A stretch of 64,000 bases of DNA from a virus (Duplodnaviria; Heunggongvirae; Uroviricota; Caudoviricetes). The notes below the pieces were generated by a model. It was not told the origin of the DNA and searched no databases. It worked only from the letters and a program-made list of their open reading frames with translations. Location of the stretch: IMG/VR virus record IMGVR_UViG_3300029740_000003, positions 18,145-82,144 of that record; one strand, written 5' to 3'. A program made the translations under genes and the position numbers. Positions 2,800 through 62,958 of the stretch are shown piece by piece (position 1 is the stretch's first letter; each line of letters begins with the position of its first letter).

Positions 2800-2827
2800 C
2801 CTATACTTGGACATGTCCACATAAAAG
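2800..2827 (+). promoter_or_regulatory. copy of recurrent promoter/operator motif (CCTATACTTGGACATGTCCACATAAAAG)
   Basis: -10-like TATACT followed by the perfect palindrome GGACATGTCC, about 110 nt upstream of the 2940 gene; same motif family as 13132, 36747, 59589, 60059, 62612, 62931 and the minus-strand copies. Confidence 0.45.
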
Positions 2828-2939
2828 AACTGACTTCCTCCACTCATGTCAAAGCATGTTCAAACTGTTTTCCGAATGGAAAAGGTTCATGCCTGATATT
2901 GGTGTGAGAGGAAAACGAAAATAAAGGAGAAAGCCAAAA

Positions 2940-4061
2940 ATGGCAGAGCAAGAGCAGTCCGCGTCAGTGCCGTCCACGCTCGACGTGTTCCTCCCCCATA
3001 TCACTCTTGGACGTTGCTCCCTCTTCGAGCCTTACGTTTTCAAGCAGAGCGACGATGACAAGAACAAGGACAAGGTTCCAAGTAAGCCGTCCTACATGTT
3101 CCGTGCGATTCTCGACAAGCGTCGTGACCGCGCCATTATCAAGAAGATTTCCGGCTATCAGAACGCATATATCGAAGAGCTGAAAGCCAAGCGCATGTTC
3201 GACAAGCGTGCCGCAATCCACTTCGCCCTCGTTGACTGCGATAGTGAGGAAGTCGAGGATAAGGACACCGGCGAACTGGTAATCATGTCCGAACGTGATT
3301 CCTCGCTGAGGGGCAAGTACATGCTTTCCGCCAAGTCTCGCGCAACCGAACCGCCGAGCGTCGGCTGGGTCGATGACAAGAACATCCTCCACCCCATGCC
3401 GAAACATTTCATCGTGAACGAGGAAGACCCCGATTCCGTTGAAGAGTACGAACGCCGACTCGACTTCTGGAAAGACAAGGTGTATGCGGGACAGTATGCG
3501 AGTGCCGTGCTTCGTCTTTCCGGCTGGCATCAGGCCAAGATTGGTCAGGGTGTGACCGGTCGAATCAAGAGCGTTGTCATTATCGGCGGCGGTACTCCGG
3601 CTGGCATCATGTCCCTTGAGGATGCTTTCACCGAAGAGCAGATTGCTGAAATGGTCGCATGGCGTGACCAGATGGTACCGGATTACGAGTCGGGCGACGA
3701 CCCGTGGAACAAGCGTGTCAAGCTTCGTTCCAGTTCTGACGTTGACGATTATGCTGAGGATGACGATGTGGAGGAAGAGGAGACTCCGAAGCCGCGTCGC
3801 AAGGCGAAGCCGGTCAAGCCGGTCGAACCGGAACCGGAAGAAGAGGACGACTACGAGTATGAGGAGGAGGCTCCGAAGCCGCGTCGTAAGACCAAGCCCG
3901 CCCGTAAGGTGAAGCCGGTCGAACCGGAAGAGGAATACGACGGCGTGGAGGAAGAGGAGGTTCCCGCTCCCCGACCGCGTAAGACCCGTAAGCCTGTCAA
4001 GGAAACGGTCGAAGACGATTACGACTCCGACTTTGACGAGGGTGCGGACACCGAATGGTGA
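2940..4061 (+). CDS. hypothetical protein with Lys/Pro/Glu-rich C-terminal repeats (PKPRRK.KPVKPVEPE) and acidic tail
   Basis: 373 aa ORF with good codon usage; repeated PKPRRKAKPVKPVEPE / PKPRRKTKPARKVKPVEPE units; no recognisable catalytic motif. Confidence 0.5.
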   Translation: MAEQEQSASVPSTLDVFLPHITLGRCSLFEPYVFKQSDDDKNKDKVPSKPSYMFRAILDKRRDRAIIKKISGYQNAYIEELKAKRMFDKRAAIHFALVDCDSEEVEDKDTGELVIMSERDSSLRGKYMLSAKSRATEPPSVGWVDDKNILHPMPKHFIVNEEDPDSVEEYERRLDFWKDKVYAGQYASAVLRLSGWHQAKIGQGVTGRIKSVVIIGGGTPAGIMSLEDAFTEEQIAEMVAWRDQMVPDYESGDDPWNKRVKLRSSSDVDDYAEDDDVEEEETPKPRRKAKPVKPVEPEPEEEDDYEYEEEAPKPRRKTKPARKVKPVEPEEEYDGVEEEEVPAPRPRKTRKPVKETVEDDYDSDFDEGADTEW

Positions 4062-4073
4062 TTGACTGATTCT

Positions 4074-4124
4074 AAAGAGTTATCCCAACCTACAAGTTTC
4101 TGTTGTAGGTTGGGATAACTCTTT
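4074..4124. terminator. bidirectional terminator: 22-bp perfect inverted repeat with 7-nt loop
   Basis: aaagagttatcccaacctacaa-gtttctg-ttgtaggttgggataactcttt between the convergent stops at 4061 and 4130. Confidence 0.7.
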
Positions 4125-4129
4125 TTAGG

Positions 4130-9555: not shown

Positions 9556-12500
9556 TTACCATTCCTCTTCCTCCACGTCCTCGTCCTCGACGTTTTCCGA
9601 ACCGTTGTTGGAAGTGAAGATTTCCTTGATATCCTCCACGTCGAGCTTTGTGAACTGTTCCGCCGCTCGCGGCATGTACTGCTGGTAGTCGATGGGTTCC
9701 GGGTTCGGAATGTCGGCAACGAGCTTAGCCAGTTCGTTCTGACCGCCCGAATACCATGTCTGCACGGCCATCAGAGTGCCTTGCATGCTTTCGTACATTC
9801 CACGACCGACCGGGATTAGACCATCCTCGTTCTTCAACGATTTCTGGGTGCGGTTCGCTTCGGAGAGATTCTGGGCGCTGACCACGCCTGCGGGGGAGTC
9901 CATTCCCAAGAGGATACGTCCCAACGAACGGAAGAACGCGTTGCCGTTGTACTTCTTCATATCGTCCATCGTCAAACGCTGAGCGCCGAAAATGCATCGG
10001 ATGCCAGCGGTACGACCCTGCACGATAATCTTGCTCAACGCGCTCATCGTCCGGGCGATGGAAGCGTTCGTGGCGGACACGGCGGCATTGTCGTTGGCAA
10101 TCTGCATGTCCTTCTGAGGGTTCTGCGTGGTCTTGCCGGTCTCCTGCAAGTACGAGTTGAACTCATCGAACAGGATGTTCAACGGTTTCAGATGCTTGCG
10201 GTCGGCTTCCTCCACGTCGTCCGGGTTCAGTTCGAAGATGTTGCCCACGCCATACTTGTTGTTGATGCGCACGCGTTCGGCCATCTCCTCACGTGCCCAA
10301 GAAATCACAGCCTCCGTCTCACGCAACTGGTACAGGCCGACGAACGCCAGAGCCTTCGGCTTCGCCCACTGGGTGAAATCGATGCAACCCTTCGACGGGT
10401 CGATGAGAATGATGTCCTCGCCTTTCAGCAAAGCCTCCGCAATGACAATCTGCGAAGCGGACGACTTGCCGCTACCGCTCTTACCGCTGATGAGCAGATG
10501 TGGCGTGGTCTTCGTATCCCAGTACACGGGATTGCCCAAATCGTCCACGCCAATCGGGAACTTGCGACGGTCACACTTCTTCGCCGTCTCCCAATCCGCC
10601 ATGACGCTTGTCGGGAACGGACTCTTCTTCGCCAACACCATGGAGAAATCCGTGCCGTAGGCTTGGATGATTCGACCATACGGATAGTTCGCTTCGGTGA
10701 GGAACTTGCCGAGATTGTATTGCGGCTTGTCCAAATCCAATCCGCCCGGAATCTGGAATTTGGCGAGCAGGACTTCCTTGTTGTTCGGAAGCACGCCCAA
10801 CGATTCGACGGTCGGCGTCTTGCCGGAACTGTCCTGAACTCCGGCAACACCCCAAGCGTCAGACAAGGCTAGTTGAATGAGTTCCTTCTGGGCGGCTCGA
10901 ATCTTCCAATGGGCCACGCTGTCCGGGTCTGTTCCCAGATACGGGTTGGAGCACAGCCATACTGTCGCACGGTCTGCCGATTGCCAATCCCAATACACTC
11001 GTTCGGAACCGACGGCGGCGCTGATGTTGGCGCTTTTCTTACGCACGTCGGCAACGGTTCCGCCACGACCCAAATGGAAGCCGATACGCCAGATGGCCGT
11101 GTCCTTGCCCATCTGCTGACAGGAGTCGATGACCACCTCCGCCCGCGATGGCATCACGTCCATGAGCGCCTTGTAGATGAGCGCCTGAGCGTAACGACGG
11201 TATTCGGGACGGGAGCCGGTCAGACGGTCGATTCTCAAAGGGGCGTTGTCCGCCATGACCAGCGAGGTGATGCTGTTCTCCTCGATGAGTCCGACGAAAT
11301 CCTTGGACGGGTCGAGACTCGATAGGTCGTATCTCATGAAGTCGGACGTGCGGTCTGGTGCCGTCAGCATTTCCGGCATGAACGAGATAGACCAGCCCTC
11401 ACTGGTTTCGACAATCTTCTCTTCGTCGTAATTGCAGACGGGAAGATTCAGTTTCGACCCGACGATATCCTGCCAAGCCTTCTGGTCCTGTTTGAACCGG
11501 CGGGACAGTTCGATATACCGGTTGAACGATTTGCTTTGCGTCAAACCCGCCGGACGATACTTGTTGCCTTTGTCGTTCAGTTTCGTTTCGGGTTGGGCGG
11601 CGAGCATGAACGCGTTCTCCAAATCGGAGAAGATAGGCATTTTGATGATGTCAGCCGGACTGAACGGGTTCGCCAACCATTCCAATCCCAACTGGGTGAT
11701 GAGAGCACCACCACTGGGAGGATTGTGCAACAGCATCAGCCATGCCGCCTCTTCCTCATCGTCTGCGGCGGCGTCGATGACCTGAACGAGCGGCGGACGT
11801 TTATGCCATTCGTTCTGGGCGCAATAATCGTAGGCGATGTCGGCAACCAGTTGGGCGATTTTCGTCCCGACCTTCTTCTTGGTGATGTCGGGAATGCAGG
11901 ACTCGTCCTTGCCGTATACGATTCGCACTAGGCTTGGGTCGAACTGCCAGCCGTTCTCCTTGATGGTTTTGGCGGCGAGCAGGGCTATGAAATTGTATCC
12001 GCTTGAGGTGGCGGAGGAACGTAACGGCTCCACACCGGCTTTCAATACCTTTTCATTGCTTCTTGGAGCGTCATACTGGTCTTGCAAGCGGACGCGCATG
12101 ACGTGCATCGGATTCTTGCGATGGCCGACCTTCTTGACTTGGGTGACGTAGGCTCCTCCCCACATCTTCGCCAAGTCGTCGCTTTTGACCCAACCGTCCA
12201 GCATGCGTTGCGCTTTTACAAGTTCACGCCAATACGCGGTCTGCTTCTTCTTGTCAAATTTCGTCACGAGCAACAGGAACAGAAGTGCGGGAAGACTGAG
12301 CGTCGTTGGAATATCCACGAACCCCAAATATGCGCAAGCTCCCAGTATAACAAGAAGAACAACGGCGGAGACGATGGCGGTGGTCTTCTGCGACGGCTTA
12401 CCTTTTTGCAGGAAGGCGAACACGCTCACACCCTGATAGATATGCCGACGGTCTACAAGACGGTCACGCCAATGAATGACGCCCATGACCGACATGAAAC

Positions 12501-12960: not shown

Positions 12961-13131
12961 TCATTATCTGTTTTTTGAATGTCGGAAATCTATTAACGAC
13001 ACTAATGGACTGTTTGTTGTAAACCTTTTGAAAACAGGAAAATTGTTTGGGGGAGGTTGGGGCTGGTTGGGGTGTTTTCTTGGCGTGTCGTCGTCTTGGG
13101 TGGCGAGTTATTATAGAAAGTTTAGGTTCAT

Positions 13132-13159
13132 GCTATACTGAGAATGTCCACAAAAAAAG
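13132..13159 (+). promoter_or_regulatory. copy of recurrent promoter/operator motif (GCTATACTGAGAATGTCCACAAAAAAAG)
   Basis: nearly identical to the 36747 copy (TTATACTGGAATCGTCCACAAAAAAG); about 50 nt upstream of ATG 13208. Confidence 0.45.
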
Positions 13160-13730: not shown

Positions 13731-14729
13731 ATGTCCCACAACAAAAAAACCATCACCATAATCACAGCAGTCGTCCTAGTGTTGGCGCTCGTCATCGGAT
13801 GGTGCGCATGGCGCAAGCACGTCACGTCCACCAAAGAGACCCAAGCCAGCGCCAACACCAGCTCCTCCAGCTCCACCAACAAGACCAAAAAGAAGAAAAC
13901 CCCAGTCTTGTCCGACAAACAAAAGGAACAGAACAAGACCATCGCCCTCCAAATGGAAAAGGACATGCGCAATTGGGGAGTGGACTCGCTCGCAGACCCA
14001 CACCAGTGGGCCAAACAGCCAGCAGACCAAGTATTGGCCGCATTAAGAACACCGGACAATATCGAGACTCCGGCGGACATGCCAACTTCCGTGAAAATCA
14101 ATCAGGGATGGGGAGGCAACGCCCCCTCCTACGTGTGCAACACCTCCGACTACCAGTCCTTATGCGACACCATGCCCACCTCCCAAGTGTGGTGGAAGAA
14201 CGAAGTATGGGGCACTGGAACCAGATGGGTCAAAGACCCGACGGCCACAGTGCTCGAAAACGGCAAGGTAAGAGTCAAAGGCAAGGTTCGTTCCATCCTC
14301 GTCACTAGCGGCGACACTTATTCGATGGGCGGCTACAATGCGCTCACCCCGGCATGGCGGGATTATCAGATTGACGACATCCTCACCATCAAAAATGGAA
14401 AGGTCTCCGACATCGAATATGTAGGAAACCAGAATTGGTGGATTAACCCGTTCCTGACCGCATGGACTCCCGACCGGGTGGCCGACAGTATCGGTGAGGG
14501 CAACAGAATCGCCATCCCGGTTTCAGGCGCATTAAATTGGAATGGTATGAATCCAACCGGCATCACCCGCGTACTGAACGCGCCCACCAGCATGGGAGGC
14601 ATGGATGGAAAAGTCGATTGGAGCATGTGGGACGATTTGATTCAGGCCGGAAACACAGCCAACGGTCAGCAACAGGCACCAGACCTTGACCCGGCGAAGG
14701 ATGCGGCCACCATCCACGACAGAGAATAG
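13731..14729 (+). CDS. membrane-anchored extracellular protein (N-terminal TM, Ser/Thr/Lys-rich linker)
   Basis: 332 aa; TM IITAVVLVLALVIGWCAW then SSSSSTNKTKKKK linker; candidate T4SS surface component (TcpC/VirB8-like role is speculative). Confidence 0.45.
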   Translation: MSHNKKTITIITAVVLVLALVIGWCAWRKHVTSTKETQASANTSSSSSTNKTKKKKTPVLSDKQKEQNKTIALQMEKDMRNWGVDSLADPHQWAKQPADQVLAALRTPDNIETPADMPTSVKINQGWGGNAPSYVCNTSDYQSLCDTMPTSQVWWKNEVWGTGTRWVKDPTATVLENGKVRVKGKVRSILVTSGDTYSMGGYNALTPAWRDYQIDDILTIKNGKVSDIEYVGNQNWWINPFLTAWTPDRVADSIGEGNRIAIPVSGALNWNGMNPTGITRVLNAPTSMGGMDGKVDWSMWDDLIQAGNTANGQQQAPDLDPAKDAATIHDRE

Positions 14730-14790
14730 TGCATTACACAAGCAAAAAGAGAAGGAATCTACATTCCTTCTCTTTTTGCTATAACTCAAA

Positions 14791-17124
14791 CTACTTCTTC
14801 CAGTTGGAATTACGGAAGAATTGGCAGTCAGTGCTGGAAAGCTGGGATTTCGTCAGCCATCGAGAACCATAGGAGGAGAACGACGCGGAACCATCACGGT
14901 TGCCTTCACTAATACGAATCTTCCAACCGGACGGGTCGGAGGACACTTCCTCAACCACGGCCACGTGACCACAATCACCACCACCGGCGAACGGGCTACC
15001 ACGACCTGATATACCGTCACCGGGTTTAGGGTTCCCATCGACCGTCCAACCGGATTGGCCTTTCAAATTGTTGGCGATGTCACCACCGTTACCCATAACC
15101 CAAGACCAGCCTTCGTTGCCGTGAATCATGGCAAGACGGTTCCATGCATACCAGACGCACTGATGACCATATTCCAAATGCGGGTAGAACACACCAGCGT
15201 CAGACGCGCTACAAATCTTCTGATTGCCCGAACACATCCAAGAAAAGTCCCCATCCTTGGTAGGCGCACCGCCGACGGAACCATACGAAGTACTACCGCT
15301 ATCGTCACTCACAGGGCACGTGGTGTTCGCGTCGGAATCGTCTGAGGAACCGCTTGAGGAACCACCCGTGTCAGCCGGGGGAGCGGAATCAAACTGCACT
15401 TCTGACGATGGCGGGAACTTGTTTGTCTGCTTGATGTAAGCAATGAACTGTTGTGTCACACCCCAAACGGTCGAGACGTAATTATTGTCCGTGGCATATC
15501 CGGCATTCTTTAACTCCTGAATGTACGCGTGAGGGTCGGTACGCTTCTGCAATGCCGTCGCATAACGGGAATTCTCGGTGATGAACTTGCCATAACCGGC
15601 GAAACCATCCTCGTCGGAATCGTAGACCGCGAAATCACCGGTCGTATCGTAACATCCACCTTGATTGCATTCCTTGGTGGCAAGCTTGACCGACTTTTGA
15701 CCATTGACCGCCTTGATGCCAAAGAAGTTATGATATTTGGTCGTCAGATTGGAAGCGCCCCAAGCGCTTTCCACTGCGGACTGTCCAAGAATCGCCTCAT
15801 ATGGGATACCGTACTTCTTGCCAATGTCAAATGCGGCCTGACCATACTTATCCGTATATGCTTGAACGGAATTGGTTACTGTCACATTGGCCGACGTGGT
15901 ATCGGTGGTTCCGTCCGTATCGTCGGATTGTGTGCAACATTGGGAACTGTCATCATCGGAGTCTCCACTCTTGCCGTTGAAGGAGATGTCGTTCAATCCT
16001 TTGTCGTAATAGTTCTTGGCTACCTGTTTTCGGTTATCCTCATTACGGGATGCCCAATTTGGCCTTTCCCATCCGGCCATCCATGCGACTGCGGCCACTT
16101 CCGGGTCGCTGGCTTCATGCCAAGTATCATACAGACTGTCGTTCTTGACGATTATCTCGGCCTTGGCTTCCGACAAGTAATGATTGTTGAAGGAGCTTTT
16201 CGCGGTTGCCACAAGCATTTTTATCTGCCCGTCCTCGTCCGAATCAGGCGTGCCCTCCAGTCCGTTGGCGTCCATCCAAGTGCGGATTTTGCTTCGGGGA
16301 GTCCATTGTCCGAGACCGTATCCATTGTCGGGGCTGCTTCTGTCCGCTACGAAACCGGATTCGGCATACACATTGCCCAATACTCCAGCCGTGGCCGCTT
16401 TGGAGAATCCCGCTGACGCGAACGCCTTGGCGATTTTGATTGCTACATCATTGGTTTTGAAATCAGAAGATGAACTGGAGCTACTGGAGTCCGAAGAGGA
16501 GGAGTCGGAGGAGCTGGACGCGGAAGAGTCGGAAAGACGATAGTAGGAAGTGTATTTACCGCCACCGTAATCAAACGGGACTTCCGACACCTCGTCCCCC
16601 TTGCTGTCACCATCCTTGCCATCGGTATCCTCGTGAGCGCCAACGGTCTTATTATCCCCGATATAGATTTCCGTATGGCCGTCCCGCCATACAACATCAC
16701 CTTTCTGGAGCTTGTCTGCGGAACCATCGAAGTCGGTTTTGGTGAAACCGGCCTTGCTCATCGGGTCATCCATACTGGACGTATTAAATGGGGAGTCGCC
16801 CAGATTCTTGACGCCACCCTTTGTCAGCGCATAGTAGACGAAACTCGAACAGTCAACATCAGGATTGAGTTTTCGTTTCGACTGGCTATAACCGATTTTG
16901 TCGTCCTTAGCCATTTCCTCGGCCTTGGCTATGTACTTGTCTATGAGACTGTTCCCACTGTCCGAACTGCTTTGGGCAGAGGTCTTCTTGCATCCGTTGG
17001 AGCGAATGGACATCATGGTCGTATCGGACACGGTACTCATACTGGTCACGCCGACCGCTAGCATCATGTCGAAGAGGAGTAGGCCAGCCATCCCCGTCGC
17101 CGCCATTTTTCCAAAACTTTGCAC
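14791..17124 (-). CDS. multidomain cell-wall hydrolase: NlpC/P60-like + lysozyme-like (GN.Y.ESG...GLGQW) + glucosaminidase-like (ESAWG...NFFGIK) + CHAP
   Basis: 777 aa; motifs DCSSFVYYAL...H (NlpC/P60 Cys-His), GNVYAESGF...GLGQW, GQSAVESAWGAS...YHNFFGIKA, C-terminal CHAP (CVWYAWNR...GHVAVVEE); N-terminal signal/TM; PrgK/CwlT/TcpG-type conjugation hydrolase. Confidence 0.75.
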   Translation of the reverse strand: MQSFGKMAATGMAGLLLFDMMLAVGVTSMSTVSDTTMMSIRSNGCKKTSAQSSSDSGNSLIDKYIAKAEEMAKDDKIGYSQSKRKLNPDVDCSSFVYYALTKGGVKNLGDSPFNTSSMDDPMSKAGFTKTDFDGSADKLQKGDVVWRDGHTEIYIGDNKTVGAHEDTDGKDGDSKGDEVSEVPFDYGGGKYTSYYRLSDSSASSSSDSSSSDSSSSSSSSDFKTNDVAIKIAKAFASAGFSKAATAGVLGNVYAESGFVADRSSPDNGYGLGQWTPRSKIRTWMDANGLEGTPDSDEDGQIKMLVATAKSSFNNHYLSEAKAEIIVKNDSLYDTWHEASDPEVAAVAWMAGWERPNWASRNEDNRKQVAKNYYDKGLNDISFNGKSGDSDDDSSQCCTQSDDTDGTTDTTSANVTVTNSVQAYTDKYGQAAFDIGKKYGIPYEAILGQSAVESAWGASNLTTKYHNFFGIKAVNGQKSVKLATKECNQGGCYDTTGDFAVYDSDEDGFAGYGKFITENSRYATALQKRTDPHAYIQELKNAGYATDNNYVSTVWGVTQQFIAYIKQTNKFPPSSEVQFDSAPPADTGGSSSGSSDDSDANTTCPVSDDSGSTSYGSVGGAPTKDGDFSWMCSGNQKICSASDAGVFYPHLEYGHQCVWYAWNRLAMIHGNEGWSWVMGNGGDIANNLKGQSGWTVDGNPKPGDGISGRGSPFAGGGDCGHVAVVEEVSSDPSGWKIRISEGNRDGSASFSSYGSRWLTKSQLSSTDCQFFRNSNWKK

Positions 17125-20788: not shown

Positions 20789-21166
20789 TCAGTCGTTCAG
20801 ACCGAAGTATTCCATCGGGTCGAAATCGGCGCTCATGTATTTTCCGGGATTGTCGTCTTCGACCGGCTTGGCCGGTTTGAATGGCTTGTCGATAGGTTTC
20901 TCACCTTTCTGCTTCAATCCGGAATAAGCCAACTGTCTCACGGACTTATCCGAATCGTGGGACAGTTTCTTCAACGTTTCAACGGACGTGTTCGAGTTCG
21001 TCGCGATAGCACGCTTCACATGGGGACTCCACTGGTCGGACATATAGTCCAATGTTTCCGTCGAAGTATTCGGATTACCGGCGACGTTGATGCGGGTCTG
21101 AGTCCAACCGTCATCGGCCAGAACGTTCAATGTTTCCGGCGAGGCATGGGGAGTCAACGACCGCAA
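20789..21166 (-). CDS. hypothetical repeat protein (NPNTSTETL / NSNTSVETL units)
   Basis: 125 aa; two helical repeat units reminiscent of LRV/HEAT-like repeats. Confidence 0.4.
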   Translation of the reverse strand: MRSLTPHASPETLNVLADDGWTQTRINVAGNPNTSTETLDYMSDQWSPHVKRAIATNSNTSVETLKKLSHDSDKSVRQLAYSGLKQKGEKPIDKPFKPAKPVEDDNPGKYMSADFDPMEYFGLND

Positions 21167-21169
21167 TGA

Positions 21170-21400
21170 CGAGCATTGCGGCTTGTCCCTGTCCGGTAGT
21201 GCCAGTGAACGGCTGTAACCGTTCTCCTACCTTTAATTGACGGAACATCATAGGGTGGTTGACTGCACCCTTACGCCGTCAGTCATGCTGGCGGCGTACT
21301 GCGAGTTCAAAAGGTCGTAGCCTTTGTGTCGCAGGTTCATCGCGGCTATCCGGTCGTCGTTGGACTGGTATCCGCAGTTGCGGCAGACATACAGGTGGCG
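21170..21400 (-). ncRNA. putative omega RNA (TnpB guide RNA) overlapping the tnpB 3' end and IS right end
   Basis: inferred from where omega RNAs lie in TnpB systems; a hairpin lies just downstream of the tnpB stop; no direct structure or sequence match done. Confidence 0.25.
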
Positions 21401-22459
21401 TTTCTTGTCACGGTTGGCTTTGCGGATTTTCCCGCATTTCGGGCAGGTCTGGCTTGTGTAGGCCGGGTCAACGAACACGACTTTCTGACCGTTGCGTTTC
21501 GCCTTGTATTCGACCATCTGCCGGAATTGGTGGAAACTCCAACTGACCTGAACATACCTGTCCTTGACCTTGACCTGTTCGGTCGCATTGCGGATTCCCG
21601 TAAGGTCTTCGAGAACGAACATCGTATCCCTGTCGTAATGGTTGACGAGTGCCTTAGACGCCTGATGGTTCACATCAGTCATCCAACGGTTTTCTCTGTC
21701 GCCTATGGTCTTGAGTCGTCTGCGGGAGCTTCGGGTGCCGCGTTTCTGCAACTGTTGACGGAGCCGCTTGTATTTGCCGCGCTTGCTTTTCACCTCCCCT
21801 CCATGTTGGAAGACGGTGGTTTCGCCGTCATAACTGGTGGCGAGCATTCGGATGCCCAAGTCCACGCCCACTATGTTTTTGGGGCTTGGGGTTGGGTCGG
21901 GAACCTGTAGGATGATGGGAATATGCAGGTACCATTTGCCTTGTTTCGATATCAGTCGGGCGGTACCGAAACGTGCCGTACGGTATTCGTCCGGGATTCC
22001 CTTCCATTGGGCTTTCACTTTGATTCTCCCGTCCATGACGGGAAGGCTGAACATTCCGGTCATGGACGAATAGGAGTAGTCGCGGTTCCACAGCAGGTCA
22101 ACACCGGCGGACGAGTACTTTGGTCTGGTGGAATAGTATGCCGTCCTCTTCCTCTTGGGGTTTTCTCCGTTCCGGCGTTCCATGCGCGAGTGAATTGCCT
22201 TGTAGGACGCGATGACCCGCCGTATCGAAGATTGGGTCATCTGGGCTAACAGTCCGTATTTGTCGCGTAGCGGGTGATAGACAGCCTCGTTGATTTTCCT
22301 CTGGCTGAGGGTGTGGTGTTCTCCAATCCAATCGGATACTTCGTTGCAACAGGAGGTGTAATTGTCACATAGGCGGTTGAGGGCTTCAGACTCGTGTTTG
22401 TTGGTCGTGAGCTTGACTTTCATGGTCAATGCGAGTTCCACCATATGCTTCACCTCCAA
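21248..22459 (-). CDS. tnpB: TnpB (IS605 OrfB) RNA-guided RuvC-like endonuclease
   Basis: 403 aa; RuvC-I VGVDLGI, RuvC-II FVLEDLTGI, zinc finger CPKCG...CRNCG, RuvC-III NDDRIAAMNL. Confidence 0.8.
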   Translation of the reverse strand: MEVKHMVELALTMKVKLTTNKHESEALNRLCDNYTSCCNEVSDWIGEHHTLSQRKINEAVYHPLRDKYGLLAQMTQSSIRRVIASYKAIHSRMERRNGENPKRKRTAYYSTRPKYSSAGVDLLWNRDYSYSSMTGMFSLPVMDGRIKVKAQWKGIPDEYRTARFGTARLISKQGKWYLHIPIILQVPDPTPSPKNIVGVDLGIRMLATSYDGETTVFQHGGEVKSKRGKYKRLRQQLQKRGTRSSRRRLKTIGDRENRWMTDVNHQASKALVNHYDRDTMFVLEDLTGIRNATEQVKVKDRYVQVSWSFHQFRQMVEYKAKRNGQKVVFVDPAYTSQTCPKCGKIRKANRDKKRHLYVCRNCGYQSNDDRIAAMNLRHKGYDLLNSQYAASMTDGVRVQSTTL

Positions 22460-22688
22460 TAAAAAACATTATATCATAATGTTAGTGGAAAGGAAAGGCA
22501 TTCACCCACAACCACAAGGGTCGTGGCACCCTGCCTAAAAATTATGGGCGTCGTATCCGTGCCCGTAGTATTTTCTAACGAACGTCGCTTTTCGCATTAT
22601 TGCCCCTCTTGTGAATGGTGGGGCGTGTCTGTCATGGCACGCCCCTTTGCGTTTTGACGGGTATTGCGCCGTGGGAAACCGTATGTTT

Positions 22689-23012
22689 TTAAGCTTCTAC
22701 CAGCTCCCACCGGTCTCCAGCCTCTTCGTCGAATTCGCCTAATCGGAAACCATATGCGGCAAGCCTCCTGTCCGCCGTGGCCTCCCATTCGTCCTCGTCA
22801 TCGCCGTATACATCTTCGACCCTCTCGGCATCGGAGTAGGAGTCGGCGCGTCCCAAGTTGATAAGCCATTGGGAGGAGTCAGCCCCCATCCAGATGCCAT
22901 TGCCGGTGATGGCATCGACGATAAGAAGCGTGTCGAATGCATCGCTCCCGTAGACGGCTATCGGCTGAACAGTGACGGTCTCGTTGGTGTTGATGTCAAG
23001 TGCGGTAAACAT
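22689..23012 (-). CDS. hypothetical protein
   Basis: start moved to ATG 23012 (MFTALDINT...) so that the conserved motif at 23039-23060 lies upstream. Confidence 0.4.
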   Translation of the reverse strand: MFTALDINTNETVTVQPIAVYGSDAFDTLLIVDAITGNGIWMGADSSQWLINLGRADSYSDAERVEDVYGDDEDEWEATADRRLAAYGFRLGEFDEEAGDRWELVEA

Positions 23013-23038
23013 TTCGGCTTTGTCTTTTCTTGTGTTTT

Positions 23039-23060
23039 TGTGTGAACAATTCCAGTATAC
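23039..23060 (-). promoter_or_regulatory. copy of recurrent promoter/operator motif (minus strand GTATACTGGAATTGTTCACACA)
   Basis: 22/22-mer shared with 24049-24071 and 24986-25008, each about 30 nt upstream of a minus-strand start. Confidence 0.5.
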
Positions 23061-23133
23061 ATCATGTTGGGGCACGACACGCCAAACAAAAAGCGCCCCA
23101 CCCACCCAAGGGAGAGGCGCTAAAACCCGACGG

Positions 23134-23520
23134 TCAGAACTCATGCTCGCAATCGGAATCGAGATACCATTTGTCCCCGTAACCCCAAAGAACACGACGG
23201 ATGGTCGCAGGGTCGTTCAACTCCACGAACTTGGACGCCAGTTCATCCACCGACATGGCGGAAAAAGCCTTGCCAACGGAAGCATAGAATTCATCCCATT
23301 CCGCCTGTTCGGCGTCGGAATCGACCAGCTCACGGAACCGTCCGGCAAGCTTCTCGTCCGGTAGGGAGGCTTCCGCAAAATTCGTGTCCTCTATGTCCAG
23401 CCAAGTGTTGAAACACTTGTCGGCCAACGCTTCAACCGGAATGGTGAGGATGCTGGAATACGTGCCCTTCCAAGCGTTTTTCTTGAAGAAGCTAACGTCT
23501 CGTGCCTTCATTTTTCTCAC
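23134..23520 (-). CDS. hypothetical protein
   Basis: 128 aa ORF 4 nt downstream of the preceding gene. Confidence 0.45.
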   Translation of the reverse strand: MRKMKARDVSFFKKNAWKGTYSSILTIPVEALADKCFNTWLDIEDTNFAEASLPDEKLAGRFRELVDSDAEQAEWDEFYASVGKAFSAMSVDELASKFVELNDPATIRRVLWGYGDKWYLDSDCEHEF

Positions 23521-24018: not shown

Positions 24019-24048
24019 TTTTTGTTCCTCCTTGTTGGAATCTATTTT

Positions 24049-24071
24049 TTGTGTGAACAATCCCAGTATAC
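24049..24071 (-). promoter_or_regulatory. copy of recurrent promoter/operator motif (minus strand GGTATACTGGGATTGTTCACACAA, with TGnTATACT extended -10)
   Basis: ATGGTATACT gives TG one base before the TATACT hexamer. Confidence 0.5.
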
Positions 24072-24132
24072 CATGTTTGTTGTGAAAAACAAAAACAGCC
24101 CACTCCCCAAAGCAAGGAAGCGGGCTGAAAAG

Positions 24133-24957
24133 TCAGGCATTCAGCAAAGCGTGGGACGAAACACCCATTTCAGACAAACCCAAACCCACATTGTTCGCGT
24201 CACTCACACCACGGGCAAAACCATCCTTGCTACCACGAGCAGTGGCCGCATGACCCGACACCAGCTCAAGCTTGTCAAAATACTCGTTCAGACGCTGACT
24301 CTTACATGACACCAGCTCACGACCGGAAGGAATGGCGAGACTCTGCTTGCGAAGCTCCTCGAAACGTTCGCTCAAACGTTCGTTGAATCCACCGCGATAA
24401 CCATAGTAGAACTTGGCGCGTGGATAATCACGACGCATGTACTGTTTGCATTCCGTCAGCGTCGGATAGGATTCACGTCCGTAATGCGTTTCGACGTATT
24501 CCTTGTTGTCCTCATAGTACGCTTTGGCGTGCTTGTCAATCATGTCCGCGTAGCTAGTACGGGCGTGGACTGAGCAGTATAGGTCGATGCTTTGGAAGAG
24601 AAGGACTGCGGCGTTCACATCGTCCTCCTCGCCTACGAACATGACGGCACGTTCCTCAATCCTTCCGCCACACCGGCTTTCGTGAAGGTAGGCGCGGCAT
24701 TCGTTAGCTTGGGCGATGATGGTCGCAAGGTAGCCTTGCTGATGGTAGATGGTGGTTTTGCTTACGTTCACGCCACGTTCGATGATTGGCTTGTTCGTGC
24801 GGGTGCGGTCGCGTTTCCAGTCTTCGATACGATATTCGTTAATGAGTTTCTGTGCCCGCTCGAACGCCATTTGCGCCTCATTGTCGCTGGATGCTTCGTT
24901 TTCGGCTATTGCCATGAGGTTGTTGATGCGTTCGATGATGCTGTCGATGTTGCTCAT
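24133..24957 (-). CDS. hypothetical protein with DUF2786-like N-terminus
   Basis: 274 aa; N-terminal IDSIIERINNLMAIAENEASSDNEAQMAFERAQKLI helical motif. Confidence 0.4.
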   Translation of the reverse strand: MSNIDSIIERINNLMAIAENEASSDNEAQMAFERAQKLINEYRIEDWKRDRTRTNKPIIERGVNVSKTTIYHQQGYLATIIAQANECRAYLHESRCGGRIEERAVMFVGEEDDVNAAVLLFQSIDLYCSVHARTSYADMIDKHAKAYYEDNKEYVETHYGRESYPTLTECKQYMRRDYPRAKFYYGYRGGFNERLSERFEELRKQSLAIPSGRELVSCKSQRLNEYFDKLELVSGHAATARGSKDGFARGVSDANNVGLGLSEMGVSSHALLNA

Positions 24958-24985
24958 TTTTTGCTCCTTGGTTTTTCGACTTTTC

Positions 24986-25008
24986 CTGTGTAAACAATTC
25001 CAGTATAC
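24986..25008 (-). promoter_or_regulatory. copy of recurrent promoter/operator motif (minus strand GTATACTGGAATTGTTTACACAG)
   Basis: upstream of the 24957 start. Confidence 0.5.
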
Positions 25009-25244
25009 CTCAAGTATGAAAACAACACAAAAAAGAGGAACGGAAACCGAAACGGGAACCGTCCCTCAATGCCTTTTAGAAAAGTGACCTTATCTCAAAC
25101 AAGAATCTATTTTAAACCACTTCCGTTTAGGTCGTCAACCTCTACTCTCGACAAAGCTCGCCCATTATCGAACTTAACCTCTTGGTACATGCTTTTTTAA
25201 AGTATTATACTTATTATAATTATTATAAAATCAAGGAAACAGAC

Positions 25245-28140: not shown

Positions 28141-28394
28141 TCAAACGGCATACTCTGACCAATGCGCTGATAACCTCTAAAGCCCCACATGGGCGAAGTC
28201 CCGAGGAAGGAAAATGCAAGTAAACCCAGTGTAACACCAAGCTGGGAAGAAAAACTAGCCGACAAGCATGCCGAGTGAAATACGATACAATCCAAGCCTC
28301 ACGAAATCTCATCCAAACGATTGAGGAAGCGGAAGATTCTGCGCCACCGCTTCCAGCAGATTACACCCCTCCACCAATCTGGAAAGTCCGGAAA

Positions 28395-32294: not shown

Positions 32295-32345
32295 TGACTT
32301 TTCCTTTCTTTTTTTGTGGGCATACCCACTATGACAGAACTTGTT

Positions 32346-36394: not shown

Positions 36395-36619
36395 TCACGC
36401 TTCCATCCAGTGGATGCTTTCGTTGAGGAAGTCTCTGATTTTGCGGAGGGTTTCTATATCGTTGACGACGACGCTGGTCGCGGTGTCGCTGTCGGTGATG
36501 GTGAACATGAGTTCCTTGCCGAAGCTGGGGGATTGGAGGATTGTGAGCTTGTTGGTTCCCTCGTTGCCGACGATTTGGAGTGCGGATGTGTTGCCGTTGT
36601 CGTATTTGGTTGCGCTCAT
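36395..36619 (-). CDS. hypothetical small protein (first gene of the dnaB operon)
   Basis: 74 aa. Confidence 0.4.
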   Translation of the reverse strand: MSATKYDNGNTSALQIVGNEGTNKLTILQSPSFGKELMFTITDSDTATSVVVNDIETLRKIRDFLNESIHWMEA

Positions 36620-36746
36620 TGTTTCTGTGGTCTTTTCCGTTCCTGTGGAATGTTTTGTGTGGGCGAGGTCAGCTTAACACACTAGGTGGGGGTATGCAAG
36701 CGTTCGGGGATTCGCGGTCGGATGATTTGCGTTCGACCATACCCTT

Positions 36747-36777
36747 TGTTATACTGGAATCGTCCACAAAAAAGGGA
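36747..36777 (+). promoter_or_regulatory. copy of recurrent promoter/operator motif (GTTATACTGGAATCGTCCACAAAAAAGGGAG)
   Basis: upstream of the ATG at 36819. Confidence 0.5.
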
Positions 36778-37066: not shown

Positions 37067-37447
37067 ATGGACGATAAAAACAACACCGAACGAGAGCCGA
37101 GAACCGAAGTGGAACGACTCCTGTTCAAGAACGAACGCATGCAGGACGCGCTGCTCGACCTCAAGGACACCATGAGCAGAATGATTGGCGAAGGCCGACT
37201 GCCAAACGACGACGAGGTACACCAATGGTTTGAGGGAATCGACCGCAAACTCGAACACGAGGCCGCTGACCGTGAGGTGTTGCTGTTCAACCATGGGGCC
37301 ATGACCACAGTGCTCCCGAAGTCCACTGAACGATACCAACCCGACCTTCAAGTCCGATATCAGGAAATTCTCACCACATGCAACAAAGCGTATGCGGACG
37401 CCGACTACAAATATTGGATTGGCCGTTTCCAACAGGCCGGACTCTGA
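37067..37447 (+). CDS. hypothetical protein
   Basis: 126 aa. Confidence 0.45.
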   Translation: MDDKNNTEREPRTEVERLLFKNERMQDALLDLKDTMSRMIGEGRLPNDDEVHQWFEGIDRKLEHEAADREVLLFNHGAMTTVLPKSTERYQPDLQVRYQEILTTCNKAYADADYKYWIGRFQQAGL

Positions 37448-37506
37448 CCTGAAAAACGCAATCCGAGCACAGTGGACAACACTGAAAGGAGTATTCGGAC
37501 AGGACA

Positions 37507-37848
37507 ATGCCGGAAACCATACAGACATACCATCCAACGTTCGAGAAGGCCAAGAAGCTCTTCAATCTGCGTAAAAGATTGTGGGAGATAGCCGACGGTA
37601 AAAGCGACGGAACAATCTCATATGAGGAGGCGAACCATCTCGCCGTGGACGCGGTGGCGACCGCCAACGGAGGAATGCCACGCGCCACGAGCGGCCCCAT
37701 GGTAAGACTCTGCAAGCTTTGCACCAACGGTTGGATTCGTGAAGCGGCAAACGAGATGGGCTTGGTTTACCCGGACTTGGACAGCCCGGAACGGTGGGGC
37801 AAACATCGAGACCATAGCCGTAAAAAGGAAAGGAAGGCAACGGTTTGA
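37507..37848 (+). CDS. hypothetical protein, tandem paralog A (C(T/E)NGWIREA motif)
   Basis: 113 aa; paralogous to 37845-38186 (LCKLCTNGWIREAANEMGLVYPDLDSPERW vs YLERICENGWIREAVRKIPKLYPYLDHPDLW). Confidence 0.45.
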   Translation: MPETIQTYHPTFEKAKKLFNLRKRLWEIADGKSDGTISYEEANHLAVDAVATANGGMPRATSGPMVRLCKLCTNGWIREAANEMGLVYPDLDSPERWGKHRDHSRKKERKATV

Positions 37849-53531: not shown

Positions 53532-53750
53532 AAACGAAAGAAAGCCGTATCCGTTTCATCGCGGACGCGGCTTTCTGTTTTTCTGTTCCGCCTGTAAACC
53601 TGTACGCCGTTCCATTGTTTTACTGGAATGTTTCTCCGAACGGTTTTCCAGTTCGGCGTGCCGACTTTTCGCCGTTGTTATCATCGAAACAAAAAACATA
53701 CCCCCACCATGATTCCGTCCACACCGGAAGCAGAAAAAGGAAACCAGAAC

Positions 53751-54995: not shown

Positions 54996-55148
54996 TAACG
55001 CGGGAAGATTTTTTTGTTTCCGCAGTAAAAAGGTTCTTTACATATATGCTGAGGTGGTTATGGTGTAGGCTTGCCGATAGAAAAGCAAAAGCCCCGCGCT
55101 GGTGGAACAGCCGGGGCAGGGCAACCAGAGGCTTAAGGAAAGTGGTTA

Positions 55149-56091
55149 CATGGGTAATTCTATCAGACCTATCGACAGTGACAGTTATCGGTATGCTCCC
55201 TCCGTGATGTCCCAGCTCAGTTTCTTTCCCGCACGCAAACCTGACGTGAATTACATCAAGAAGACCAACGGGCGTTCCGCAATCATCATCACTCCGACTG
55301 AAGGTAAGTGGTCGTATGGTTCTGTGCCCCGATTGTTTCTTCTTTACATTCGTACTTTGATTAAAAACAAAGACTCTCGGGTCGATTTCGAAAGCATGAC
55401 TGTGAACCTTGGAGGAAGCTATCGTGCCATGTGTGAAGCGATGGGTGCTTCCACTGGTGGGAAAAGCAAACGTCTTCTCCTTGAGTCAATCAAGAATCTT
55501 GCTTGCACCCATATAACATTGGAACATTGGGTTTCGGATGATAGCGGCATGTATGAGAGTTTCCCGGTAGCGCAGAAAGTATGCATTGATTTTGGCGGCG
55601 AGGATAAGGAATCCTATATTACGTTCTCCTCTCAAATGTGGTCTCTGCTAATAGAGGAAGCCGTTCCTGCTCAAATGTCCATTATCAGGAACATATCTAA
55701 TTCTGCACTCGCTTTGGATATTTACATGTGGTTGGCTTTCCGAACAAATAAGTTACGCTCGTGCGGAATGAAAGTCCCGTGGAAAGACCTAACCGTTCAG
55801 TTCGAGGACGGCGACTATCCGGTCAAAGAATTCAAAAGACGATTCACGACAGCCTTGAACAAAGTCAAGGAATCATGGCCTGAATTGAAGGCAAGTCTTG
55901 ATGAATATGGCATAACCGTCTATCCGAGCATTTCGTCCATTCATTCCAACGGCAAGATTGTGGACGCTGTTGTTGTGAAAGAAGAATCGGGTTCCTGCGA
56001 CGGACATGTAATCAAAGCGGATGTCTCATGCAATTCGGGACAAAATGATTCATCGACAGATGATATAAGGAATGCCGCTAATCCTTTTTGA
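55149..56091 (+). CDS. plasmid replication initiator RepA-like protein (paralog 3 of 3; the copy associated with iterons)
   Basis: start at ATG 55149 (MGNSIRPID) with RBS AAGGAAAG; shares motif blocks with 119-1009; immediately followed by iterons and an AT-rich element. Confidence 0.6.
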
Positions 56092-59210: not shown

Positions 59211-59588
59211 TAGCCGGTTTCTCCATGAGACCCGTCGCCTGTAATCTATGGTTATAGAGATTCCATATGAGGGCGGCGGGTCGTCTTTTTGCGCGAGAGA
59301 TAAGGGTTCATCTAGAAGAGAAAACACCCGTTAAACCCCTTGTTGGGAAAATTTTTCCTGTTTTTCCGGTTTTTCACCAGATGAATGTTCGAGGTCGTTT
59401 ACTGTAACAGTTGAGACCGGGTTTTCGTGGTATATCTTCCACCATCTGGTTTCTTTCCCGGTCTCTGTGGAACGCTCCTCACGGGGAGTGTGTTTCGGGT
59501 TCCGCCACCCGTGTGTGGATTCTTTTTTTGGGTGGCGGAACCATTTTCTTTTCTAATCGACATTGTGGCGATTTGAGAAGAGAATGAT

Positions 59589-59618
59589 GTTATACTAGAA
59601 GCGTTCACACAATAACAG
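59589..59618 (+). promoter_or_regulatory. copy of recurrent promoter/operator motif (GTTATACTAGAAGCGTTCACACAATAACAG)
   Basis: 25 nt upstream of ATG 59643. Confidence 0.5.
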
Positions 59619-59642: not shown

Positions 59643-60014
59643 ATGAGCAACTACTTCAACAGCATCGAACATCAAATCAACCTCATGCTCGACAGGGAAC
59701 AAGACCTCCAAGACGAACAGGAACAGCGCCTACGGGATATTCACGACGGCATCGGAGACTACGTGCTGTTGCCCGAAGGCGACCCGTGGAACATCGATGA
59801 CTACGAGCAAGACCCACAGCCCACCAACGTCAACAACACTTGCAGTCACGGACTCTATGTTGACGAAGGTGTGAAATCTGGAACCATGTATCATCTCAAC
59901 CCTGACCTCGGACTGTGGGCGGCTTGTGACGACTACGAGGACATAGAAAAAATGGTCAGGGAAGGCAAAACGCTCACCCAGCCCATCGACGATTACGATT
60001 CGAAGCTCGCCTGA
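59643..60014 (+). CDS. hypothetical acidic protein
   Basis: 123 aa. Confidence 0.45.
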   Translation: MSNYFNSIEHQINLMLDREQDLQDEQEQRLRDIHDGIGDYVLLPEGDPWNIDDYEQDPQPTNVNNTCSHGLYVDEGVKSGTMYHLNPDLGLWAACDDYEDIEKMVREGKTLTQPIDDYDSKLA

Positions 60015-60058
60015 GAAAGAATTTTTCCTGCAACCTTCCTTGTTTGCGAAAAACTACG

Positions 60059-60090
60059 TTATAGTGGAACCAGCCACAAACAAGGAAGGT
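60059..60090 (+). promoter_or_regulatory. copy of recurrent motif (GTTATAGTGGAACCAGCCACAAACAAGGAAGG), bracketed by a 15-bp perfect inverted repeat
   Basis: AACCTTCCTTGTTTG (60032-60046) and CAAACAAGGAAGGTT (60078-60092) flank the -10 and include the RBS. Confidence 0.45.
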
Positions 60091-60096
60091 TCCTTT

Positions 60097-62298: not shown

Positions 62299-62583
62299 GT
62301 GAAAGGCTTCCTAAAGAACCTATTGGCTTTGACCGGGCTGGCGTCCATCATCACCATGCTCGGCTCCCTCGCATATGTGGATAAGAAACTACATGATGTG
62401 GGCAACGGATACAAGTACGGCCCCGCACGGCATCTGGAGTATTTGAGCGCGCTGTTGCACTCCTTCAACCGTTCTATAGATGTTATTGCCGCCGACACGC
62501 ATCGGAAGGTGTGCGATGAGGAGAATCGGAAGTATGACCGTTTGGAGGATGAGCGGGAGAGGGCTTGGAGCGCGGCCCGCTGA
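62299..62583 (+). CDS. hypothetical protein (GTG start), N-terminal hydrophobic segment
   Basis: 94 aa. Confidence 0.35.
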   Translation: MKGFLKNLLALTGLASIITMLGSLAYVDKKLHDVGNGYKYGPARHLEYLSALLHSFNRSIDVIAADTHRKVCDEENRKYDRLEDERERAWSAAR

Positions 62584-62611
62584 GTATTTGGTTTTCTTTG
62601 CGTCTGTCTAT

Positions 62612-62640
62612 GTTATAGTGGAACTGTTCACATAAAACAG
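62612..62640 (+). promoter_or_regulatory. copy of recurrent promoter/operator motif (GTTATAGTGGAACTGTTCACATAAAACAG)
   Basis: 16 nt upstream of ATG 62656. Confidence 0.5.
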
Positions 62641-62655
62641 ATTCGAAGGAAGACC

Positions 62656-62913
62656 ATGAACCAAAAAGTCCTCATCACTCTCAACAACGGAGCGAAACGT
62701 ATCGTATACCGTGACGACCTCTGCCACGAGCTGGCCGACCTGCTCCGGCTCTACCTGCACGCCGACGCGTTGCCGGGAACAGGGGAACGTTGGGAACTGT
62801 TGAGGACGCTTGCATCCACTCTCATTGGTCGCGCTATCGAAAAAGGGCTTTTTGAGGACTGCGCCCGCGTGAACGTGTATCCGGTTTCTTTCCAAATGGT
62901 TCGGCCTGATTGA
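62656..62913 (+). CDS. hypothetical protein
   Basis: 85 aa. Confidence 0.4.
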   Translation: MNQKVLITLNNGAKRIVYRDDLCHELADLLRLYLHADALPGTGERWELLRTLASTLIGRAIEKGLFEDCARVNVYPVSFQMVRPD

Positions 62914-62958
62914 CATATTCAACAAACTGAGTTACAGTGGAACTGTTCACACATATAG
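62911..62958 (+). promoter_or_regulatory. sigma-70-like promoter (-35 TTGACA, 16-nt spacer, -10 TACAGT) whose -10 and downstream GGAACTGTTCACACA are a copy of the recurrent motif
   Basis: TTGACA at 62911-16, TACAGT at 62933-38; shows that the TATAsT part of the motif is the -10 and the conserved GGAAC.GTTCACA lies at the discriminator/TSS. Confidence 0.5.

Follow-up and report, generated by a model that had tools for sequence, protein, structure and literature searches.

What reads a short sequence that recurs, in one fixed register, in front of a dozen scattered genes of the same mobile element? This question is raised by a stretch of 64,000 nucleotides, positions 18,145 to 82,144 of the IMG/VR virus record IMGVR_UViG_3300029740_000003 (Caudoviricetes), hereafter called the window. 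An original prediction, made by a model from the sequence alone, described ten strong copies of a promoter/operator motif in it and proposed a plasmid-wide regulon, with an XRE-family protein as its possible regulator. Here, we aim to place this motif, to dissect its anatomy and to weigh what may act on it. The motif is almost certainly that of the family of pMP7017, a bifidobacterial megaplasmid, so that the finding itself rediscovers a published motif in a divergent, lineage-specific version. What is new is its presence at orthologous promoters in at least four lineages, its lineage-specific forms (dialects) and the rigid tie between its downstream block and the -10 element.

The motif in the window and in pMP7017

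The window carries 11 strong copies and one degenerate copy of TG.TATAsT-G(G)A...-GTyCACA.AAAA. With the pattern TAYASTGGRAYNGTYCACA (at most two mismatches), nine matches are obtained against 0.02 expected from 100 dinucleotide-preserving shuffles, the highest count in any shuffle being 1. A weight-matrix scan is bimodal: ten sites score 32-44 bits and the next best 11.6, while the top scores on shuffled sequence are ~8-13 bits. In the copy near 2800, the -10 and the downstream block are one base further apart, and deleting this base brings the score to 29 bits. Direct reading of the sequence recovers all ten strong copies originally claimed, each at its predicted position and strand, and two more were absent from that claim, namely 32310-32341 and the degenerate 36653-36684 (both on the minus strand). 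The "weaker copy" proposed upstream of parA (53617-53640) has a score of -4.7 bits and does not belong to the set.

The idea that the copies stand upstream of genes and not inside them is borne out. All 12 lie in the non-coding share of the window (~12.7%), and all 12 are co-oriented with a downstream open reading frame (ORF) that has a ribosome-binding site, its start codon following the first -10 base by 37-74 nt (137 nt for the copy near 2800). At least five further copies are found in 18 kb of flanking DNA.

A motif of this kind was described for pMP7017 by Dineen, Bottacini, O'Connell-Motherway and van Sinderen (2024, Microb Biotechnol 17:e14405; PMC10832533) as a 34-bp sequence, 5'-AWAYATGYTATACTGAATATGTCCACATAAAAWA-3', overlapping the -10. 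It was recognized first at six genes highly transcribed during exponential growth and then at 13 more sites, giving 19 copies assigned to 56 genes, or ~24.1% of the plasmid's coding capacity, with the promoters mapped by ordinary RNA-seq. The authors proposed a transcription-factor site, did not name the factor, and saw the motif in pMP7017 homologues but not in bifidobacterial chromosomes; B. adolescentis and B. pseudocatenulatum are not mentioned in their paper (PMC10832533). The originally predicted plasmid-wide regulon agrees with this published reading.

Our own scan of complete pMP7017 (B. breve JCM 7017, KM406416, 190 kb) yields ~25-27 copies in the same register as in the window. The two versions align base for base, TATACT-GGAAyT-GTTCACA in the window against TATACT-GAATAT-GTCCACA in pMP7017, and the consensus sequences (tatGtTATAcTGGaA.tGTtCACAcAaAA and aaAtATGtTATACTGaAtatGTCCACATAAAa, respectively) are equally spaced. 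They share the core TG.TATACT-G.A...-GTyCACA.AAA and its register over the -10, the many dispersed copies within ~60 bp of start codons, and even the orthologous genes served (DUF2815, DUF2786, a homologue of g047 and the DnaB-operon pair). They differ in their carriers, which in the case of the window comes from the B. adolescentis/pseudocatenulatum group and not from B. breve/longum, with proteins only 30-66% identical across syntenic genes. They also differ in consensus, GGAAyTGTTCACA(C/A) against GAATATGTCCACAT, the window version being more degenerate at +3 and +8.

As for the carrier itself, IMG/VR labels many contigs of this family as viral. Megablast of the window against plasmids returns matches only to Bifidobacterium megaplasmids, among them a VirB4-like ATPase gene at 73% identity. 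Exact copies of window proteins occur on metagenomic contigs of 207-231 kb, and in a metagenome assembly collection the XRE protein is present in 3526 blocks and a motif-served 85-aa protein in 2415. NCBI labels the exact XRE protein as B. adolescentis and one member of the ParA cluster as B. pseudocatenulatum. The window therefore comes from a very common megaplasmid of ~220 kb that resides in adult-type bifidobacteria. This plasmid belongs to the B. adolescentis/pseudocatenulatum group and is deeply diverged from pMP7017. The lineage is not in PLSDB at the nucleotide level, and no description of a megaplasmid in either species was found in the literature searched.

Promoter anatomy and lineage dialects

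The element TATAsT was originally taken for a -10, and both its form and its position fit the -10 element of sigma-70/sigma-A. To describe the promoters further, we collected 204 distinct sites of the family; one of the retrieval patterns required TG, so the TG count given below is partly biased. The -10 hexamer is TATACT at 143 of these sites and TATAGT at 20, whereas the host consensus TATAAT is found at only two; in the window, 11 of the 12 copies have TATAsT or TAYAsT. TG stands at -15/-14 in 147 of the 204 sites and in five of the ten window copies claimed at the outset. A -35 with at least four of six matches at 16-18 nt precedes 31% of the family sites, against 13% of shuffled controls, and a perfect TTGACA is found at seven, including that at 62910-62915. 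The latter had been noted before and is real, although its spacer to TACAGT measures 17 nt, not 16; as a general layout, a clean -35 is the exception. The usually weak -35, together with TG at -15/-14, makes these mostly extended -10 promoters, and very probably they are promoters of sigma-A.

A G directly follows the -10 in the motif, and TAnnnT keeps a fixed position. By general start-site rules, transcription would begin at the conserved G seven bases after the -10, which is preceded by a T. The conserved block spans the discriminator and this predicted start, as had been proposed. Information content peaks at the -10, at the G at -6 and at GTyCACA(T)AAA, in which the CACAyA box occupies +4..+9. 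Consistent with this, 62 groups of orthologous sites from different plasmids vary least at -12..-5 and +4..+9, whereas -2/-1 are free.

The downstream block does not lead a life of its own. The heptamer G[TC][TC]CACA is not enriched as such (38 observed vs 31.6 expected in the window; 109 vs 102 in pMP7017), and after TAnnnT it follows at a spacing of 6 nt in 25 of 25 copies from pMP7017 and in most of those in the window. The exception is the DUF2815 promoter with 7 nt, a spacing that recurs at the orthologous promoter of a lineage with an XRE protein of only 74% identity. With no orphan blocks and a fixed spacing, the motif thus behaves as one rigid unit and not as a movable operator. Further downstream, the two lineages part: in pMP7017 the similarity continues through the leader to the ribosome-binding site, whereas in the window lineage the leader is not conserved beyond ~+12.

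The downstream block had also been described as partly dyad-symmetric, with GGACATGTCC at 2809-2818 as a perfect palindrome. The palindrome is perfect indeed, but it occurs in that copy alone and is not kept in pMP7017; across copies, symmetry is at or below the column-permutation null. Along the best dyad axis, TGT-nn-ACA, 0.53 of positions are complementary in the window lineage (null 95th percentile 0.60) and 0.67 in pMP7017 (null 95th percentile 0.63, null maximum 0.77). A dyad operator was therefore rejected.

The predicted leaders are short, A-rich, rich in CA and unstructured, with z ~0 for 10 of 11 when minimum free energies are compared with those of shuffles. The exception is the predicted 139-nt leader of the DUF2815/Enc34-like single-stranded DNA-binding protein (SSB) gene (2815-2953), which forms a long hairpin (-34.4 kcal/mol, z = -3.7). 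Scanning the window for Rfam families and tRNAs gave no matches. With unstructured leaders in 10 of 11 cases and an empty Rfam result, a structured leader RNA or riboswitch was rejected.

When orthologous promoters of the window and pMP7017 are aligned, identity is ~50% in the motif and falls to 24-29% in the flanks. Such islands of identity mark the promoters of the DUF2815/Enc34-like SSB gene, DUF2786 and the g047 homologue as well as the divergent DnaB-operon pair, a pattern that speaks for purifying selection on the motif. It is kept in lineages with a guanine-plus-cytosine (GC) content from 0.52 to 0.62, among them a sub-lineage whose proteins are 88% identical and two more lineages (GC 0.60 and 0.62). 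A scan of IMG/VR with TGYTATACTGNNNNNGTYCACA retrieved at least 102 stretches; among the matches listed, 98 of 102 can be assigned to this plasmid family on the basis of contig identity, GC content or BLAST similarity. In ~100 kb of chromosomal Bifidobacterium DNA, with no B. adolescentis chromosome included, there was no match.

The family speaks in two dialects. In every contig of the pMP7017 type, -5 is A, -3 is T, +3 is C and +8 is T, with hardly an exception, whereas all those of the window type have G at -5, A at -3, mostly T (otherwise C) at +3 and any base at +8. At orthologous promoters, the dialect is that of the carrying plasmid. Since the retrieval pattern left -5..-1 free, the selection of sites is not the source of this difference. 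Co-evolution with a lineage-specific reader would be expected to leave such a pattern, and the dialects may therefore be seen as indirect support for a plasmid-specific factor acting in trans.

Candidate readers of the motif

The copy number, position, orientation, homology, orthologous conservation and dialects of the motif are observed; the exact start site, a reader and the sign of its regulation are what we infer. Positions +4..+9 are as invariant as the -10 itself, TATAAT is nearly absent, and -5, -3, +3 and +8 have two fixed states within one genus. RNA polymerase accounts for the TG, the -10 and perhaps the G-rich discriminator but not for these features, which point to a second, plasmid-specific reader. 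As the site covers -19..+12, the region where repressors bind, we favor a repressor encoded by the plasmid, at about even chances.

In this model, host sigma-A would recognize an extended -10 promoter (TG at -15/-14, TATAsT at -12..-7, a G(G) discriminator and a weak or no -35), giving a transcript whose leader is short, A-rich and unstructured and leads to a strong ribosome-binding site. The core promoter would be overlaid by an asymmetric recognition site of ~30 bp, which varies least at -15..-5 and in the CACAyA box at +4..+9. A sequence-specific DNA-binding protein of the plasmid would occupy this site and occlude or lock the promoter, thus repressing it. Dispersed transcription units for DNA metabolism, establishment and defense, together with many small genes, would in this way come under one control, and they would fire when the repressor is low, e.g., just after transfer into a new cell or upon a signal that inactivates it. 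That such promoters are active, and often highly transcribed, is documented for pMP7017 only (PMC10832533). The genes served fit a role in establishment and defense. In pMP7017 they include ssb, the DnaB operon, an exonuclease, recombination genes, the DUF2815 SSB-like protein, methyltransferases, cas/CRISPR-Cas and small genes; in the window they include DUF2815, DUF2786/DUF7168, SPFH, the DnaB operon and many small proteins.

Several points weigh against a repressor. For the cognate DNA-binding protein there are only candidates, namely the XRE protein and an ImmR-like helix-turn-helix (HTH) protein. The motif is asymmetric with a dyad at null level, which is atypical for the HTH-dimer global repressors of plasmids, and its downstream block never occurs apart from the -10, so that the unit could represent a copied promoter cassette. 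The pMP7017 motif was found among highly transcribed genes of exponential growth, where any repressor would have to be leaky. The dialects, too, could stem from concerted evolution or gene conversion among the copies, for which no reader is needed. Finally, the start sites are predicted for the element studied here, and those of pMP7017 derive from ordinary RNA-seq only.

The main rival is precisely such a self-contained promoter-leader cassette with no dedicated regulator: an optimal expression module of ~30-60 bp that unites an extended -10, a favorable G-rich discriminator, the initially transcribed sequence, an A-rich, unstructured leader and a strong ribosome-binding site. It would have been copied before many genes, with selection for high expression maintaining it. 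The rigid spacing of block to hexamer, the lack of orphan blocks, the A-rich, unstructured leaders and, in pMP7017, the similarity reaching through the leader to the ribosome-binding site are all in its favor. The conserved downstream regions of strong early promoters of phage T5 provide an analogue, and the GGAA after the -10 resembles the GGGA discriminator, which stabilizes open complexes. Moreover, transcription of the genes behind the motif ranks among the highest in pMP7017 (PMC10832533). A mere expression module, however, leaves the near invariance of +4..+9 unaccounted for, as RNA polymerase reads those positions without base specificity, and it would hardly have TATAAT at only two of 204 sites. 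Nor does it sit well with lineages that fix different bases at -5, -3, +3 and +8, also at orthologous promoters and in congeneric hosts, or with the unconserved leader of the window lineage; we hold it to be possible but unlikely. Positive control, or a polymerase specificity of the plasmid's own, is very unlikely in our judgment. It could be exerted by a plasmid activator, a sigma-like factor, an appropriator of RNA polymerase (e.g., WhiB-like) or a separate RNA polymerase, and it would make sense of a conserved block that spans the start site as in T7-type promoters, of the usually poor -35 and of the fixed, non-consensus C/G at -8; pMP7017 also encodes a WhiB-family protein within the presumed regulon. 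Yet the motif holds a near-perfect extended -10 of the host type, and an extended -10 is sufficient for sigma-A. Among the 223 annotated features of pMP7017 there is no sigma factor or RNA polymerase, and the catalytic motif DxDGD is absent from the long ORFs of the window and has its sole pMP7017 match inside a DNA methyltransferase. Large proteins of unassigned function (1343 and 894 aa) match nothing in PDB or Pfam and none of the solved polymerases, and no WhiB homologue was found in the DNA sampled from the window lineage, which covers it in part. With that same partial sampling of the lineage, an RNA polymerase or sigma factor encoded by the element was rejected.

Could the motif act at the level of RNA instead? 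GUyCACAyAAAA at the 5' end of the mRNA might confer stability, enhance translation or provide a ribosome standby site, or attract a small RNA or a protein that binds RNA. Those downstream positions that vary least would indeed be transcribed, into leaders that are single-stranded and rich in A and CA. The same leaders have no conserved secondary structure and no Rfam family match, however, and the dialect positions -5/-3 and the conserved -19..-13 lie outside the transcript if the start is where we predict it, which makes this reading highly improbable. As for the XRE protein (1997-2659), which the original prediction had put forward as regulator of all copies, it has an N-terminal HTH_3 domain, matches PHROG repressor families weakly and occurs in every lineage examined, and its gene is always divergent from the motif-bearing DUF2815 promoter. 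Its recognition helix, moreover, varies by lineage (VS[T/L]STYKRWE, VHVNTYRAWE, MSVNTYSKYE). All that ties it to the motif is adjacency to one copy and conservation within the family; the proposal fits these observations, but they do not count as evidence in its favor. As a rule, XRE HTH proteins recognize palindromic sites as dimers, and the motif offers no palindrome for such a dimer; the XRE-DUF2815 intergenic region contains no inverted repeat common to the lineages. The C-terminal domain of the protein is also found alone, without an HTH, in relatives and chromosomes, the ImmR-like HTH with its ImmA-like protease is conserved in both lineages and makes an equally good candidate, and many other small proteins of the element are without assignable function. 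The XRE protein is thus an improbable reader of all copies. Distinctly doubtful in our view is the idea that a new kind of plasmid factor, and not a palindrome-binding HTH dimer, reads the motif as a single asymmetric unit (-15..-5 plus the CACA box at +4..+9), perhaps acting on RNA polymerase or together with it at the open complex, and that this factor has co-evolved into lineage-specific dialects.

Both named candidates for the plasmid-encoded repressor merit a closer look. For the XRE protein, covariation of recognition helix and dialect could be followed only so far, with the additional lineages giving two convincing sites each. A search of genome contigs with this protein returned mostly chromosomal genes that have the C-terminal domain only, with no motif nearby. 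This domain (YTVPIP...EPYPGYAEE...W..AWE) occurs as a stand-alone protein of ~150-180 aa without HTH in related contigs, and likewise in the chromosomes of B. ramosum, reuteri, saguini, imperatoris and bohemicum. The ImmR-like HTH protein (123 aa) is encoded in an operon with an ImmA/Peptidase_M78-like protease ~4.5 kb beyond the right end of the window (metagenomic contig 14243-15460), and the two are kept in pMP7017 at 36% and 47% identity, respectively. Upstream of the operon lie back-to-back, overlapping promoters of the motif type, one of them with 7-nt spacing, and a TTGACA promoter with an AGCATA...TATGCT inverted repeat. In the same region, CGAACACTTGTTCA resembles an actinobacterial LexA box, and the locus may be an SOS-linked switch.

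A few other explanations were tried and rejected. A conserved ATG precedes the motif and resembles the protospacer-adjacent motif of type I-E systems, which suggested CRISPR interference on the plasmid's own promoters, yet none of the 25 spacers of the two type I-E arrays of pMP7017 agrees with the motif at more than 17 of 35 positions, which is chance level. Polar translocation signals of the FtsK/TraB type were dismissed because the orientation of the copies follows the genes and not the replicon, and because copies are found at promoters only. The likeness of GGAAC.GTTC to a LexA box or to the -35 of extracytoplasmic function (ECF) sigma factors was set aside, as the spacing appears to be wrong for either consensus.

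Individual copies, comparable systems and significance

The copies, the genes that they face and their orthologs in pMP7017 are collected in Table 1.

Table 1. Motif copies and associated features, with coordinates in the window; genes listed for a motif copy are those of which it is the putative promoter, unless worded otherwise
Feature	Coordinates	Strand	Sequence features and score	Gene or context	Ortholog and conservation
XRE-family gene	1997..2659	-	HTH_3 at residues 6-37, then conserved acidic C-terminal domain	Divergent from the 2794 copy	
Motif copy	2794..2826	+	7-nt spacing instead of 6; -10 TATACT 2802-2807; GTCCACA 2815-2821	137 nt upstream of Enc34/DUF2815-like ssDNA-binding gene 2940-4061 (Pfam); divergent from XRE gene	
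Motif copy	13126..13157	+	TGCTATACTGAGAATGTCCACAAAAAA; 36 bits	13208-13675 (155 aa); probably also 13731-14729	
Motif copy	23036..23067	-	TATACTGGAATTGTTCACACAAAA; 42 bits	22689-23012 (107 aa, acidic)	
Motif copy	24047..24078	-	TGGTATACTGGGATTGTTCACACAAAA; 44 bits	23524-24018 (164 aa) and 23134-23520	
Motif copy	24984..25015	-	TATACTGGAATTGTTTACACAGGA	DUF2786+DUF7168 gene 24133-24957	pMP7017 copy 28272-28290 (-)
Motif copy	32310..32341	-	TGTCATAGTGGGTATGCCCACAAAAAA; 24-32 bits	SPFH/Band7 gene 31653-32294, then DUF6273 gene 30603-31649	
Degenerate copy	36653..36684	-	TGTTAAGCTGACCTCGCCCACACAAAA	Faces operon ending in DnaB (36395-36619 ... 32346-33686); divergent pair with 36742 copy	pMP7017 56120 (+)
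Motif copy	36742..36773	+	TGTTATACTGGAATCGTCCACAAAAAA	36820-36996 (58 aa) and 37067-37848	pMP7017 56052-56070 (-)
Motif copy	59583..59614	+	TGTTATACTAGAAGCGTTCACACAATA	59643-60014 (123 aa)	pMP7017 35178-35196 (-); also kept in 88% sub-lineage
Motif copy	60052..60083	+	CGTTATAGTGGAACCAGCCACAAACAA	60097-60429 (TTG start, 110 aa)	
15-bp perfect inverted repeat	60032-60046 / 60077-60091		Right arm contains ribosome-binding-site-like AAGGAAGG	Brackets the 60052 copy	Partly kept in 88% sub-lineage
Motif copy	62606..62637	+	TGTTATAGTGGAACTGTTCACATAAAA; 43 bits	62656-62913 (85 aa)	
Motif copy	62910..62956	+	AGTTACAGTGGAACTGTTCACACATAT; consensus -35 TTGACA (62910-62915), 17-nt spacing	62978-63241 (87 aa)	

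The perfect inverted repeat around the 60052 copy, one of the details of the original prediction, is real. Its left arm lies upstream of the predicted start and would therefore be missing from the transcript of that promoter itself. A partial motif (TGTTATACTGGGAGC...) at 12324-12352 on the minus strand lies within an FtsK/SpoIIIE-like gene; it has a perfect extended -10 and a GGGA discriminator, is without the CACA box and is kept in other copies of the plasmid, and it may be either a promoter inside the gene or a match by chance. The 107-aa protein encoded at 22689-23012 (minus strand) behind a motif copy is strongly acidic, with a C-terminal half rich in D and E and no match in Pfam or PHROG, and is reminiscent of DNA-mimic anti-restriction proteins. 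In pMP7017, the stretch at 64.5-73.6 kb contains type I-E cas genes in two blocks, each with a motif promoter before it (64496 and 68469) and a CRISPR array behind it (11 and 16 repeats); the annotation of this stretch lists neither cas3 nor cas2.

Some features of the megaplasmid itself may also be mentioned. The window has two genes of the RepA_C family, at 55102-56091 and 119-1009. Among metagenomic copies of the plasmid, the rep gene beside parA lies on either strand and encodes 289, 313 or 329 aa, and near the other, some copies have an IS605 element or an additional RepA_C gene; the replication regions of this lineage look rearrangement-prone in these comparisons. At 21153-22553, the window carries an IS200/IS605-type TnpB element that is 98.7% identical to a copy on the B. 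longum plasmid CP084013, an identity that points to a recent exchange of insertion sequences (IS) between two megaplasmid lineages or their hosts.

How does the motif compare with known systems? The KorA/KorB operators of IncP-1 plasmid RK2 and the ArdK/StbA/KorA network of R388 also place one short sequence at many promoters of a plasmid, and a likeness to them would imply coordinated control, probably as a burst on entry, of establishment and maintenance genes. Those operators, however, are palindromes with identified dimeric proteins and a variable position relative to the promoter, whereas the motif of the window is asymmetric, is locked to the -10 and is neither a palindrome nor an independent operator. 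The stoperators of Cluster A mycobacteriophages (L5 gp71) come from a mobile element of actinobacteria as well, and their ~25-30 asymmetric sites of the 13-bp class are oriented with transcription. They lie both within and between genes and block elongation, with one operator overlapping Pleft, while here every copy is itself a promoter; a gp71-like protein was not identified for the window motif. Promoters of the T7 type (-17..+6) and the early promoters of T5 likewise show conservation that starts upstream of the -10 position and reaches into the initially transcribed region, and they occur in many copies per genome, but no polymerase encoded by the element was found here, and the motif contains a canonical extended -10 of the host.

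In human gut bifidobacteria, the motif marks out a regulon scattered over conjugative plasmids of very large size. In pMP7017 this regulon accounts for ~24% of the coding capacity, and the window lineage is far commoner than any cultured example. The deep retention of the motif in two dialects makes the identity of the reader directly testable. From an applied perspective, the motif promoters are compact and probably strong bifidobacterial promoters that could serve in genetic tools. If a plasmid-encoded repressor is indeed at work, the regulon would respond to entry into a new cell with a burst of expression. If, on the other hand, a new kind of factor reads the motif as one asymmetric unit, megaplasmids in thousands of human gut metagenome assemblies would carry a private promoter code over about a quarter of their genes.

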